Origin: a virus
Taxonomy: Duplodnaviria; Heunggongvirae; Uroviricota; Caudoviricetes
Strand: one strand, 5' to 3'
Length of the DNA stretch: 64,000 bases
IMG/VR virus record: IMGVR_UViG_2684623171_000009
Shown here: one piece after another, positions 3,672 through 8,235 of the stretch
Numbering within the stretch: the first letter of the stretch is position 1
How the letters are laid out: the number at the start of each line of letters is the position of its first letter
The notes under the pieces: generated by a model
Seen by the model: only the letters and a program-made list of their open reading frames with translations
What the model was told of the DNA's origin: nothing
The model's database searches: none
Made by a program: the position numbers and the translations under genes

Positions 3672-3863
3672 TTAAAGACCTGCCGGGATTTCGTTATTAT
3701 CCTGGTGAATAACTTTATCGACCGGGTAACAGTTACCGGGAATTTTCTGTTCGGTTGCTGCAGTCACACACTCCTGCATTGTCCTGTGAACACTGACTGC
3801 AATATCAACTGGCTCTCCGGAAACAAGAAAAACTGTCAGAACAAGTGCAAATGCTGTATTCAT
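3672..3863 (-). CDS. ydfD: YdfD-like small membrane (lysis-type) protein, 63 aa
   Basis: Internal Met of ORF 3672..3917 gives a 63-aa protein with N-terminal hydrophobic helix; overlaps dicB stop by 4 nt. Confidence 0.5.
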   Translation of the reverse strand: MNTAFALVLTVFLVSGEPVDIAVSVHRTMQECVTAATEQKIPGNCYPVDKVIHQDNNEIPAGL

Positions 3864-4048
3864 TGCCAGCATCCTTTTTGTATCGGACGTAAACGGGCCA
3901 ACATTGAAAGAATGCATATTTTATTTAATAGCTCCCGTTCGTGTTTTCTCTTGTTAATGGCATCTTCAGTAAATACAGGGTTACTGATAGTGACACCAAT
4001 TTCAAAACAACCTTCAGACGTATTAACGTTTGGTAATAACGTTTCCAT
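3860..4048 (-). CDS. dicB: Cell-division inhibitor DicB (62 aa)
   Basis: Internal start METLLPNVNTSEGCFEIGVTISNPVFTEDAINKR... matches recalled DicB; lies downstream of DicF as in Qin. Confidence 0.8.
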   Translation of the reverse strand: METLLPNVNTSEGCFEIGVTISNPVFTEDAINKRKHERELLNKICILSMLARLRPIQKGCWQ

Positions 4049-4222
4049 TATCGCGTCCTCAACAATGAATTTTGTGATGCGGTGCCTGGTGCCTCCAGGT
4101 GACGTTAACCAGTTAACAATTAACGCCGGATACAGAGAATCCCCCCATAACACTGTTTTTGGTTTTAACTGTTCCGCGTGCGCTCAGCCGCATTCACCGC
4201 ATCACAAAATTCACTTTAAAAA

Positions 4223-4275
4223 GGGCGGCAGAGCAGTCACGGAGTAAAACTGATACCGCCAAACGTCACCAGAAA
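4223..4275 (-). ncRNA. dicF: DicF small RNA (53 nt) with intrinsic terminator
   Basis: Minus-strand sequence UUUCUGGUGACGUUUGGCGGUAUCAGUUUUACUCCGUGACUGCUCUGCCGCCC followed by a U-run; immediately upstream of dicB. Confidence 0.85.
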
Positions 4276-4616
4276 ATTGATAACAGAGGGCGTTGCAGCG
4301 GGGTTGTCACTTAAGCGTATGGTCAACCTGACAACCCGGTGTCCTCAACGGGGGAAGGAATAACCCCTCCATACTTACCGCCGCGCCATTTCGCGGATTG
4401 CCACAACCGGAAGCGCACGGTCGACGAAAATTTAACGACAGGCTATCTATGAACCAGCTACCTCGCCGTGCGCTTTCGCGTTATGGTCTGACTTTTCAGG
4501 GAAATATCCTTTCAGTAAACTGTCAGTGCCGTATGCTCACCCGTGTCCGGCGCACGCACTCCACCTCACCCGTGGAGAACTCCTTAATTACCAACCTTAG
4601 CTTCGTTGGTTAGCTA

Positions 4617-4835
4617 TTAACGCGGGTATGTAATCATTCTGGCAATGCTTAATGCCGCTGCTTTTTCCAGATTGGTGATATCCTGCTCCAGAGCGGACAG
4701 ATTTTCAGCCTGCTTAGCCCTGGCTTCATTGGCCCATTTCAGATCCTGCGCTGCATTAATTTTCTGGTGCATCCACTCATAAAGTTCATCATCGGTATAG
4801 TCTGGCGCGATGATGACGGGTTCTCGTTTCTGCAT
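4617..4835 (-). CDS. YdfC-like small prophage protein (72 aa)
   Basis: 72-aa ORF upstream of dicF on the operon strand; size and position match Qin ydfC. Confidence 0.4.
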   Translation of the reverse strand: MQKREPVIIAPDYTDDELYEWMHQKINAAQDLKWANEARAKQAENLSALEQDITNLEKAAALSIARMITYPR

Positions 4836-4927
4836 GTCGGCTCCTTGTGGTTAGCGTTGCCTGCTTTTAACCACGTCAGGCGAGGTGGTATCCTCTGAGG
4901 GGTCTGTTACTCGAGAGGAAATTGGTT

Positions 4928-5128
4928 ATGAATACAATCAAGTTTTCTTGCCCAGAATGTGGTGGCGAAGTCTTTGACACATCCTTTAAGCCGCAGGGCT
5001 CTGACAGTTTCGCGGGAGCCATCTGCAAAAATTGTGGTCACCTTGTAACTGAAGATGAGTCCTCGCAGTTCGATGACGAAATCGTTGACAATATCTTCGG
5101 TGCACTCACCAGAGACTTTCTGAAGTAA
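4928..5128 (+). CDS. Small zinc-ribbon protein (66 aa), antisense to the dicB operon
   Basis: CPECGG...CKNCG zinc-ribbon pattern, acidic C-terminus, GAGG upstream of ATG; an overlapping minus-strand ORF also exists. Confidence 0.5.
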   Translation: MNTIKFSCPECGGEVFDTSFKPQGSDSFAGAICKNCGHLVTEDESSQFDDEIVDNIFGALTRDFLK

Positions 5129-5469
5129 AGGCGCATACCGCTTAGTTACCGCTCTGATAACTCTTACCTGTCCTGCAATGGCGCTGATGTCAATATAAAG
5201 CGCCATTGCTGCTTCTTTGCCGATCCCGGGATGCCTTCCATTCTGATGTTTGACTTCGCCCACTGAGAAACCCTCTGTTTCCCCTTAACGCCGGGGTAGC
5301 GGAACAAAAACCTGCTGCATAGTTATTAAAGTTGAACCCTGCCGTCATGTTCATACGCCTCGGGCTGGCTACTTAACCCCTGACCACTGCCGGGTAACTC
5401 GAAGTATTTCCCTGCGTTCTGTGGGGCGGGGTGGGTTGGTATTTTTAGTTTAATAAACATTAAACTTAA

Positions 5470-5540
5470 GTCAAGTAAAAACTAAACCGCGGGACATAAC
5501 AAACACAACGCTTTTGATAAAGTCGTTGCGGTTGTTATGT
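5470..5540 (-). terminator. Putative intrinsic terminator downstream of the toxin gene
   Basis: About 17-bp imperfect inverted repeat (GACATAACAAACACAACG...CGTTGCGGTTGTTATGT) followed on the minus strand by a U-rich tract; coordinates approximate. Confidence 0.35.
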
Positions 5541-5558
5541 TTCTATTGGTAGTGAAAG

Positions 5559-5837
5559 TTAGGGAAACTGGCGTCTTGCGTGGATCACGTTTACTACTTC
5601 AACGCTTGATGTTGTTACGCGGTATAGAATTATATAGTTAGGGTGGGCTACAATCTCACGCAAGCCAGGTACTCTGTCGCTTGGTGGGTATAAATACGGA
5701 TGTTCGGATAACGGCAGCACACAACCCCTTAATCGCTGCCATAAGCGTTCAGCCGCATCTATGTCGAAACGAGCAATATAACTAGTTATATCATCTAGGT
5801 CGGTATCTGCGCTTTCAAGCCATAACACGGGTAACAT
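5559..5837 (-). CDS. parE2: ParE/RelE-superfamily type II toxin (92 aa), ParE2-like
   Basis: C-terminal motif ...YRVTTSSVEVVNVIHARRQFP; start 1 nt after the antitoxin stop. Confidence 0.75.
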   Translation of the reverse strand: MLPVLWLESADTDLDDITSYIARFDIDAAERLWQRLRGCVLPLSEHPYLYPPSDRVPGLREIVAHPNYIILYRVTTSSVEVVNVIHARRQFP

Positions 5838-5838
5838 T

Positions 5839-6030
5839 TTACTGCTTGCTCCGTTCCTTGCGCATCTTAGCAAAGCGTTCTGCCATTCTGCGCTCAACTT
5901 CGTCATGGGGAATTGCTGGGCGCGGATCTGCAAGGCTCGTTGCTACTTTCGCACGCAGCCATTCGTTGTAACTGTTTTCTTGTTCAATGGTTTCAAATTC
6001 AGAAACCATTGGTGAAAGGGCTCTATTCAT
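5839..6030 (-). CDS. paaA2: Antitoxin (63 aa), PaaA2-like
   Basis: 63-aa ORF immediately upstream of and translationally coupled to the ParE-like toxin. Confidence 0.65.
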   Translation of the reverse strand: MNRALSPMVSEFETIEQENSYNEWLRAKVATSLADPRPAIPHDEVERRMAERFAKMRKERSKQ

Positions 6031-6050
6031 GTTTCCTCCGGTTTTATAAC

Positions 6051-6422
6051 TCAGGCGCGGCGGCATTTTTGCGCCGCAATCCATCTCGCTATGAGATCTT
6101 CCATTGATTCTTTTTTCTGCTTTAACTCGCTGATTATCTGGCGTTGCTCATCCTCAGGGAAGGCTGAAAAAATCTGCAATAATTCCAGTTGATTAGACGT
6201 TAACCCTGCATGTGGTGGAGAACCCCCCGGTTGTTCTGCGTATTCCGCATCCAGATACCCTTCCGGCATCCCGTATGTTTGCTCTATTCTTCTGGCAGCC
6301 TTTTCTCCAAACGAGGCTCTCCCACTCATTAGTTGAGATAGGTAGCTCTTCTCTTTGGGTGGCAGAGTTTTATCTTTAAACCACTCCTTGAGACGTAAAC
6401 GGCGAATTTCTTTTTTTTGCAT
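6051..6422 (-). CDS. paaR2: XRE/DicA-like HTH regulator (123 aa), PaaR2-like
   Basis: N-terminal HTH; C-terminus resembles DicA; first gene of the three-gene toxin-antitoxin operon; divergent from a Cro-like gene. Confidence 0.65.
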   Translation of the reverse strand: MQKKEIRRLRLKEWFKDKTLPPKEKSYLSQLMSGRASFGEKAARRIEQTYGMPEGYLDAEYAEQPGGSPPHAGLTSNQLELLQIFSAFPEDEQRQIISELKQKKESMEDLIARWIAAQKCRRA

Positions 6423-6519
6423 GTGGTAATTATCTTTAGTAATCACTAAACAAGCAAATACTTGACTTAATGGTTTATTAAACACTAAACTCGCAAAAAA
6501 ACACTAAACCGAGGAAGGT
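6423..6519. promoter_or_regulatory. Divergent promoter/operator region between the DicA-like regulator and the Cro-like gene
   Basis: Three direct copies of CACTAAAC; TTGACT(-35)-like hexamer about 17 bp from TAAACT; RBS GAGGAAGG before the 6520 ATG. Confidence 0.5.
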
Positions 6520-6822
6520 ATGACATTAAAAGAGTTTATTAAATCATTAAGGGTTGGTGATGCTAAGAAATTCGCGGCCAGACTTGGTGTATCGCCATCT
6601 TACTTATCGCAAATGGCGTCTGGACGAACAGCTATATCTCCAACCCGCGCCCTTATGATCGAATCTGCGACGGAAGGCCAAGTAAGTAGGGCGGAGCTAC
6701 GACCCCATGATTGGGAGCTTATTTGGCCTGAGTATGCGAGCGGCATTCGTTTGGGGCAAACACATGTAGTTCATGCTGAAGGTGATTGTAGTGCATGCTT
6801 ATCTGATGGAGTTGATTCATGA
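6520..6822 (+). CDS. YdaS-like Cro-type HTH regulator
   Basis: LGVSPSYLSQMASGRTAISPTRALMIESATEGQVSRAELRPHDW pattern as in YdaS; divergent from the repressor. Confidence 0.6.
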   Translation: MTLKEFIKSLRVGDAKKFAARLGVSPSYLSQMASGRTAISPTRALMIESATEGQVSRAELRPHDWELIWPEYASGIRLGQTHVVHAEGDCSACLSDGVDS

Positions 6823-7244
6823 AAATCAAGCATGAACACATCCGCATGGCGATGAATGTCTGGGCGCATCCGGACGGCGAAAAAGTACCGGCTGCGAAAA
6901 TTACCAAAGCGTATTTCGAGCTGGGAATGACGTTCCCGGAACTGTATGACGACAGCCATCCGGAAGCCCTGGCCCGTAATACCCAGAAAATTTTCCGTTG
7001 GCTGGATAAAGACACCCCTGATGCTGTTGAAAAAATGCAGGCTCTGTTACCGGCGATCGAAAAGGCGATGCCGCCTTTGCTGGTGGCCCGTATGCGCAGC
7101 CACAGTTCTGAATATTACCGTGAGATCGTCGAACGGAGGGATCGGCTGGTGAAGGATGTCGATGATTTTGTTGCGTCAGCGGTTGTTTTGTATGACCAGA
7201 TGAATCGCGGCGGCCCGGCAGGGAATGCTGTGGTGATGCACTAA
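6819..7244 (+). CDS. YdaT-like (CII-like) regulator
   Basis: Starts MKIKHEHI as in YdaT; overlaps the YdaS-like stop. Confidence 0.55.
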   Translation: MKIKHEHIRMAMNVWAHPDGEKVPAAKITKAYFELGMTFPELYDDSHPEALARNTQKIFRWLDKDTPDAVEKMQALLPAIEKAMPPLLVARMRSHSSEYYREIVERRDRLVKDVDDFVASAVVLYDQMNRGGPAGNAVVMH

Positions 7245-7266
7245 AAGCACGGTGTTCGGGGGTTTT

Positions 7267-8229
7267 ATGAGCAGCAAGCTTCATGGTCTTGTCTGGGAAG
7301 GGTGCGCCTTCACCGGCATGATCTTATCCAGGGTGGCGGTTATGGCCCGTCTTGCAGACTACAGCAATGACGAGGGCGTGTCATGGCCTGCCATTGAAAC
7401 TATCCGGCGTCAGATCGGTGCAAGAAGTGAATCCACAGTGAAATCGGCTATTGCAGAACTGGCGAAAGAGGGCTGGCTGACGAAGGAAGAGCGTAAGGTC
7501 GGTGGGCGTAATGTAAGCAATATCTATCGGCTTAATGTGGAAAAACTCGAAGCAGCTGCTGCGGCGGCGCGTGAGTCATATAAACCGAAAAGAAAAATTA
7601 GCCCGGCAAAAAATGACCCGTTAACAGTTGACCCGTCAAATATTGCCCCCTCAACGGTTGACCCGTCAAATTTTGATGGATCAACTGTTGATAACAAACT
7701 GCCGATTAGGGGGGCGATGATTGACCCCAATCCGTCAGTATTAAAACCTGATCCGTCAGATAAAAGATCTTCTTGTCCGGACGCTTCGCAACCGGACCCG
7801 CAGACGGCTGAACAGAATTTTTTAACCCGACACCCTGACGCGGTTGTGTTCAGTGCGAAAAAACGCCAGTGGGGAAGTCAGGAAGATTTGGTGTGCGCAC
7901 AGTGGATCTGGGGACGAATCGTGAGTCTTTACGAGCAGGCGGCCAGCGATGATGGCGAGATCACGAGACCGAAAGAACCCAACTGGACTGCATGGGCCAA
8001 TGACGTGCGGACAATGCGGATGCTGGATGGCAGAACTCACAGACAAATTTGTGAAATGTTTGGGCGTCTCCAGCGGGATTCGTTCTGGGTAAAAAACATC
8101 ATGAGTCCGGCAAAACTCCGGGAAAAATGGGATGAACTGGTTATCCGCCTGGGGCGTTCGCCCGCGCAGCGTTGCGTGAATCACATTTCTGAACCGGACA
8201 CTGAAATACCGCCGGGATTCAGGGGGTGA
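7267..8229 (+). CDS. Replication initiator (lambda O-like, N-terminal winged HTH) with internal origin iterons
   Basis: HTH N-terminus; iteron DNA repeats inside the ORF encode LTVDPSNIAPSTVDPSNFDGSTVD; followed by a helicase loader. Confidence 0.6.
   Translation: MSSKLHGLVWEGCAFTGMILSRVAVMARLADYSNDEGVSWPAIETIRRQIGARSESTVKSAIAELAKEGWLTKEERKVGGRNVSNIYRLNVEKLEAAAAAARESYKPKRKISPAKNDPLTVDPSNIAPSTVDPSNFDGSTVDNKLPIRGAMIDPNPSVLKPDPSDKRSSCPDASQPDPQTAEQNFLTRHPDAVVFSAKKRQWGSQEDLVCAQWIWGRIVSLYEQAASDDGEITRPKEPNWTAWANDVRTMRMLDGRTHRQICEMFGRLQRDSFWVKNIMSPAKLREKWDELVIRLGRSPAQRCVNHISEPDTEIPPGFRG
7610..7765. repeat. Putative phage origin iterons
   Basis: Two perfect GTTGACCCGTCAAAT copies 30 bp apart plus degenerate copies (GACCCGTTAAC, TTGACCCCAATCCGTCAG, GATCCGTCAGATAA). 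Confidence 0.5.
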
Positions 8230-8235
8230 CGTGTC

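Follow-up and report, generated by a model that had tools for sequence, protein, structure and literature searches.

The inverted repeat that encloses paaR2-paaA2-parE2 almost certainly consists of a pair of operator clusters belonging to the genetic switch of a prophage. Positions 5443–6813 of the window (the whole 64,000-nucleotide stretch of viral DNA analysed here) would accordingly form the immunity region of CP-933P, a lambdoid prophage of the Sp12 type, with PL/OL at one end of the repeat and OR at the other. What had looked in an earlier note, made from the sequence alone, like a toxin–antitoxin (TA) cassette between inverted repeats is thus better described as a repressor operon between its OL and OR. 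Judged by sequence, the layout agrees with the testable features of a lambdoid OL/OR switch. The inverted repeat is the already published and experimentally tested PL/OL of CP-933P, and since the underlying biology has been both published and tested, little of it is new. Others have demonstrated that PL933P is active and is repressed by PaaR2 and YdaS, and have footprinted OR (PMC8630535), whereas the motif statistics, the co-variation of OL/OR with the repressor and the persistence of the design without the TA genes come from the present analysis. What the comparison adds is that the PL/OL design is conserved far past E. coli, independently of TA, and that the cargo of the slot in front of OL is varied.

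The locus is paaR2-paaA2-parE2 of CP-933P, the type example of the PaaR-PaaA-ParE family of three-component TA systems (Hallez et al. 2010, as described in PMC8630535). It is 100% identical to E. coli strain 319 and has two differences in 1877 nt from an EDL933 assembly, one of which, at 5476 (T versus C), falls 2 nt upstream of the –35 of PL. RefSeq protein accessions are shared, and the parE2 product is WP_001303511.1 in both strain 319 and EDL933. When the primers of Table S3 of PMC8630535 were mapped onto the 64 kb window, all matched exactly, placing the PL933P-gfp insert at 5441–5558, leftward, and the EMSA fragment at 6423–6519. Jurenas et al. 2021 (mBio 12:e02947-21; PMC8630535) assign paaR2-paaA2-parE2 to the immunity region of CP-933P, a cryptic lambdoid prophage, describe PaaR2, YdaS and YdaT as behaving like analogues of CI, Cro and CII, and report toxicity of ParE2 and its neutralisation by PaaA2 for proteins identical to those encoded here. 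The PL933P/OL and PR933P/PRM933P/OR regions of that report are the same locus, and the difference from the present one is essentially nil. The PL/OL-parE2-paaA2-paaR2-OR-ydaS-ydaT module is also present, at 98.3% identity, in Escherichia phage Evi (LR597642.1, 23854–25454), whose deposited genome is 40 kb; this immunity type therefore extends beyond the cryptic prophage CP-933P.

Three closely packed minus-strand genes run from 6422 down to 5559, exactly the span given in the earlier note, and Pfam, PDB and primer mapping identify them as paaR2, paaA2 and parE2, as the note had read them (Table 1). ParE2 matches the 5cw7/5cze structures over residues 2–93 and is a ParE-fold toxin. PaaA2 has no HTH or RHH match in Pfam, as is characteristic of an antitoxin without a DNA-binding domain. 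The separate regulator is the first gene of the same operon: paaR2 lies 20 nt upstream of paaA2, and the paaA2 stop codon is separated from the parE2 start codon by 1 nt. On the plus strand, ydaS and ydaT are followed by an O-like and a DnaC-like replication gene. Residues 1–71 of PaaR2 match PDB 7nkv (5e-41), deposited as ‘Phage repressor protein CI’. Pfam gave no match for PaaR2, the S24 autopeptidase domain included, and PMC8630535 describes the protein as having no peptidase motif. PaaR2 is thus CI-like in action and stands outside the S24 repressor family, and RecA cannot induce it. A Yersinia relative with the same HTH type carries Peptidase_S24 (L026, 5e-24).

Table 1. Features of the CP-933P immunity region and its flanks (window positions)
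Feature	Position	Strand	Remarks
Conserved leader of PL (early-left) transcript	5300..5442	-	Left edge of exchangeable immunity module
PL933P promoter	5447..5474	-	–35 TTGACT (5474-5469), 16-nt spacer, –10 TAAACT (5452-5447); promoter scan
OL operator palindrome GTTTAAT-AAAC-ATTAAAC	5448..5465	.	In PL spacer, overlaps –10; 0 mismatches to GTTTARTN4AYTAAAC
Second OL operator	5470..5487	.	Overlaps PL –35; right half-site ACTAAAC is the conserved half
Hairpin after parE2 stop codon	5494..5540	-	Inverted repeat, 22-nt arms; RNA fold –24 kcal/mol, z –4.2
parE2 toxin gene	5559-5837	-	Pfam PF05016 ParE_toxin 2e-16; PDB 5cw7/5cze 7.6e-60
paaA2 antitoxin gene	5839-6030	-	Pfam PF21217 PaaA2 1e-19
paaR2 repressor gene, CI analogue	6051-6422	-	123 aa, leaderless; F-PaaR2 and R-PaaR2 primers map to both gene ends
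OR operator palindrome CTTTAGT-AATC-ACTAAAC	6434..6451	.	IR1 of PMC8630535; overlaps PRM; inside EMSA fragment 6423-6519
PR933P promoter	6462..6491	+	TTGACT, 18-nt spacer, TAAACT; contains palindrome 6473-6490 (IR3 of PMC8630535)
Operator half-site AAAAAACACTAAAC	6496..6509	.	Part of IR4 of PMC8630535; repeat family D1
ydaS, Cro analogue	6520-6822	+	Pfam YdaS_toxin 3e-12 and HTH_3; published primers map to gene
YdaT operator OM, TTGATTN6AATCAA	6812..6829	.	Exact match; motif from PMC9986795
ydaT, CII analogue	6819-7244	+	Pfam YdaT_toxin 3e-10

The right copy represents PR, from which ydaS is transcribed; the TA operon has the leftward leaderless PRM, on the opposite strand, as its promoter. 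The published PR and PRM primers (PMC8630535) map to 6422–6495. Together with the promoter scan, this corrects the view that 6461–6491 is the promoter of the TA operon. DNase I footprints have been reported at OR, where both PaaR2 and YdaS protect 18-bp palindromes over the divergent PRM933P and PR933P, with the half-site consensus GTTTAGTAA (PMC8630535). The locus therefore has the lambdoid arrangement in which the repressor and cro-like genes diverge and the promoters of both are covered by repeated operators. The junction of ydaS and ydaT holds the only exact copy of the OM motif in the window.

On the left, primers F-PL-SacI and R-PL-BamHI (PMC8630535) map to 5538–5558 and 5441–5462, respectively, and since the PL933P insert spans 5441–5558, the left copy (5445–5475) is contained in the published fragment. 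In a gfp reporter, this fragment is reported to be repressed ~100-fold by either PaaR2 or YdaS (PMC8630535). OL1–3 are shown in supplementary figure S2 of the same paper; the palindrome coordinates given here are our own motif matches. Even among the most diverged copies in E. coli, the palindrome in the PL spacer varies only at its central position; it is conserved in 23 loci, and an equivalent of the second OL operator, GTTTAnTTTTTACTTGAC, is found in relatives. PaaR2 would be expected to bind OL directly; a literature search turned up no later work that deals with looping or with binding of PaaR2 at OL. The left copy had been placed just past the operon terminator. Its position is as described, but the terminator is represented by a strong hairpin only: the terminator scan called no intrinsic terminator on the minus strand at the operon end, the hairpin has no adjacent T-run, and a canonical intrinsic terminator was rejected on these grounds. 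By analogy with lambda t_imm, the hairpin probably ends the PRM transcript before OL.

The left copy might alternatively serve only as an auxiliary looping operator for repression of PR/PRM, with no working promoter on the chromosome. PaaR2 is reported to octamerise in solution, as does CI (PMC8630535), and CP-933P is a cryptic prophage, both of which would suit such a role; yet the cloned fragment supports gfp expression that can be repressed, 22 of 23 relatives retain an outward-pointing –35 and –10, and a conserved leader and the ydfC-DicF-dicB operon lie downstream. Moreover, the two roles are compatible and need not be set against each other. Lambda OL is both a promoter-operator and a looping partner. 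We therefore consider an operator without a promoter very unlikely and retain PL/OL as the identity of the left copy.

The following switch is highly probable. PaaR2 acts as a CI-like repressor and YdaS as a Cro-like regulator, and both bind 18-bp palindromes, GTTTAGT-N4-ACTAAAC, which are clustered at OR and OL. OR occupies the interval between paaR2 and ydaS, overlapping the divergent PRM and PR, and OL lies ~1 kb away, just beyond the end of the paaR2-paaA2-parE2 operon, overlapping the outward PL; such a second operator cluster over an outward promoter past the repressor operon is a lambdoid feature, and it is found here. PL and PR have identical hexamers on opposite strands and are inverted copies of one design, in which a palindromic operator sits in the spacer, its outer half-site plus one T forms the TAAACT –10, and a second operator site overlaps or adjoins the –35. 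Because the operators cover the –10 and the spacer, bound repressor occludes RNA polymerase at both PL and PR, and the same OR sites also set the activity of PRM. As suggested by gene order, PL would drive an early-left operon comprising the conserved leader, ydfC, DicF (Rfam 76.7 bits), dicB and then the exonuclease and xis genes. The TA pair is cargo, lodged between the repressor gene and OL much as rexAB is in lambda, and PaaR2 octamers may loop OL to OR across ~1 kb.

Several further observations concern the PL operon. The leader at 5300–5442 has no Rfam match and folds worse than shuffled sequence (z +1.8), and a structured RNA in it was rejected on both counts. Its 5' end is C-rich (CCAACCCACCCCGCCCCAC) and could possibly be a Rho-loading (rut) or processing site. 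Within the operon, and antisense to it, is a 68-aa zinc-ribbon ORF with a CxxC...CxxC pattern (4922–5128, plus strand; RefSeq ‘ECs_2282 family putative zinc-binding protein’), at the ydfA/ydfB position of other prophages, and the minus-strand ORF overlapping it (4907–5263) is the one annotated in phage Evi.

The region behaves as an exchangeable module within E. coli. The leader is at least 93% conserved in ~3700 of 5426 E. coli genomes, which carry different immunity modules, and this conservation ends beside OL, at 5442; to the right, the flank is likewise kept from about 6814 onward in ~3700 E. coli genomes, and the repressor/cro pairs between the flanks differ. Conserved flanks around differing interiors imply that the exchangeable unit extends from OL through ydaS, as in a classical immunity module, its left edge abutting OL. 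Six modules with the same flanks were compared, namely, that of CP-933P, that of a second prophage in the window and four others. In each of them, the region after the repressor operon and the repressor–cro intergenic region share a module-specific repeat, and the true OL–OR pairing was the best of 720 permutations (score 83 versus at most 58.5 for pairings without a correct match). The second prophage in the window shows weak OL/OR similarity, with a score of 9.5 that is not the top of its row. Between heteroimmune modules, OL and OR co-vary with repressor specificity. Furthermore, OL accompanies paaR2 and OR in each of the 593 E. coli genomes that carry these two, and at the megablast level no TA-less copy of this immunity type was found among these 593 genomes. 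OL and OR span 1077–1078 bp in every one of the 40 matches listed. Neither the half-sites nor the PL –35 vary in phage Evi or in the E. coli copies that have diverged most; substitutions there lie in the segments between these elements and in the sequence preceding the hairpin.

The second lambdoid prophage region (~34800–48200) has the same backbone as the first (~3800–15400): DicF is found at 35240 and 4223, sok at 42501 and 11120, STnc100 at 47991 and 15233, and tRNA clusters at ~47000 and ~14300 in the second and first region, respectively. Its immunity module differs, comprising an S24-type repressor (36935–37573, minus strand) and a cro-like gene ending at 37907, and its ydaT (37891–38316) has primer-length identity with that of CP-933P.

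The same data bear on the possibility that a mobile or recombining TA cassette has the two repeats as its terminal inverted repeats; they would then be expected to move together with paaA2-parE2 and to delimit an insertion. The repeats do flank the three genes, and the module is swapped as a unit between prophages with its left edge at a repeat. The exchanged unit, however, also takes in ydaS, which lies outside the repeats; it contains no transposase, and no flanking direct repeat is seen (TTGGTATT at 5437–5444 versus CGCAAAAA at 6492–6499). Moreover, in E. coli O22:H8 strain 154 (L002:2741–3648) parE and paaA are 91% and 95% identical to those of CP-933P, yet the OL segment is just 36% identical. 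The regulator of this strain has an unrelated N-terminal domain, sharing only its C-terminal 55 residues with PaaR2 (53% identity), and the module has its own OL/OR repeat. Conversely, PaaR2-type loci beyond E. coli all lack the TA genes, yet nearly all of them retain the downstream repeat (see below). The bracketing of a TA cassette by its own inverted repeats, as first described, therefore gives way to OL and OR of an immunity region, which track the regulator rather than the TA genes. We regard a mobile cassette as highly improbable, and a transposon- or MITE-like element was rejected given TA genes with other operators, repeats without TA genes and the lack of a target-site duplication and of a transposase. 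The presence of a near-identical TA pair in the heteroimmune module of strain 154 implies that either the TA genes or the surrounding specificity parts were exchanged by recombination. Such a pair in heteroimmune modules fits the published idea that TA penalises immunity swaps in which it is lost.

The OL/OR assignment was extended to 27 loci with PaaR2-type regulators of 43–76% identity, collected from Photorhabdus, Xenorhabdus, Yersinia, Erwinia, Morganella, Raoultella, Arsenophonus, Massilia, Mycoavidus and others. Neither paaA2 nor parE2 is present in any of the 27. The palindrome has 91 matches in these loci versus 8.4 expected, of which 48 are upstream of the regulator (OR), 40 downstream of its stop codon and three elsewhere, and 25 of the 27 loci have a downstream palindrome. 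Alignment of 23 downstream sites, that of CP-933P included, revealed in 22 a –35-like TT[GT][AC]C at most 14 nt upstream of the palindrome; likewise in 22 of the 23, the outer half-site and the next base form a –10-like TAnAnT, and the promoter points away from the regulator. The check proposed in the earlier note was conservation of the downstream copy in related prophages and its binding by the regulator; the copy is kept in the E. coli relatives as well as in these distant loci, independently of TA, and is PaaR2-regulated (PMC8630535), so that on this point the repeat holds.

Where the slot is empty in these relatives, OL lies 65–330 nt past the regulator stop codon. Such closeness of OL to the regulator supports the suggestion of the authors of PMC8630535 that TA was inserted into a pre-existing immunity region. 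Other relatives have different cargo in the slot, on the strand of the repressor (L022:3040–3783, L028:3086–4012, L030:3691–4515, L026:3197–4088, L031:3345–3970 and L037:3176–3439). Examples are a HipA_2 kinase (PF20613, 1e-68; PADLOC PDC-M66A) and the PADLOC candidate PDC-S42 (1e-91), together with a DUF4236 protein, an Arc/RHH protein and several unknowns. By analogy with lambda, paaA2-parE2 can be regarded as one occupant of a rexAB-like cargo slot. A broader proposal, to which we give even chances, is that looping between OL and OR by PaaR2 octamers (~1 kb) places the TA genes in a repression loop and makes their expression loop-dependent, and that the slot between repressor and OL is a conserved cargo site in Enterobacterales and some Betaproteobacteria.

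The repeat itself is best seen when a gap is allowed. Without a gap, the reverse complement of 5445–5475 matches 6461–6491 at 14 of 31 positions; with one 2-nt gap, 23 of 29 positions (79%) match, in agreement with the roughly 80% identity initially given for an inverted copy beyond the operon. The gap is explained by the promoter spacers, as the identical hexamers are 16 nt apart in PL and 18 nt apart in PR. Exact copies of the 12-mer TACTTGACTTAA are present at 5466–5477 (minus strand) and 6459–6470 (plus strand), with 0.21 matches expected in the window, and TAANMAYTAAAC has four matches in the 64 kb, every one inside the two repeat regions, compared with 0.07 expected. The 18-bp operator palindrome GTTTARTN4AYTAAAC also has four matches in the window, starting at 5448, 5470, 6434 and 6473, and is confined to the two regions, whose local alignment score was equalled by 3 of 2000 dinucleotide shuffles. 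Because the operators are palindromic, the two regions are direct repeats as well (19 nt at 89%). A chance match between two intergenic stretches, which their shortness, AT-richness and low ungapped identity might suggest, is barely credible in view of the 12-mer pair, the operator counts, a design kept across bacterial classes and the published regulated promoter activity of the fragment (PMC8630535), and it was rejected on the motif counts and the conservation in relatives.

For annotation, paaR2 should be read as a phage repressor gene and ydaS-ydaT as no TA pair, and the repeats are uninformative on mobility.

The lambda immunity region, also outlined in PMC8630535, has the order PL/OL - rexB - rexA - cI - PRM/OR/PR - cro - cII. 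CP-933P resembles it in that the repressor operon runs leftward from a leaderless PRM, accessory genes come after the repressor gene, the operon is followed by another group of operators and an outward PL, a cro analogue is divergent and accompanied by a CII analogue, and the region is exchangeable as an immunity module. It differs in the repressor, which has 123 aa and no S24 autopeptidase domain, in its operators, which are 18-bp palindromes of another sequence, in the OL–OR distance (~1.0 kb versus ~2.4 kb in lambda) and in the cargo, a ParE-type TA pair instead of rexAB. The CII analogue, YdaT, differs as well in having a POU-type fold (PMC9986795). Prophage Qin of E. coli K-12 (dicA/dicC - ydfABC-dicF-dicB) shares with CP-933P the early-left operon of ydfC, DicF and dicB downstream of the repressor gene, as well as the conserved leader common to ~3700 E. 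coli genomes. By contrast, the repressor, cro analogue and operators of Qin are unlike those of CP-933P, in which ydfA/ydfB are replaced by other sequence that includes the antisense zinc-ribbon ORF.
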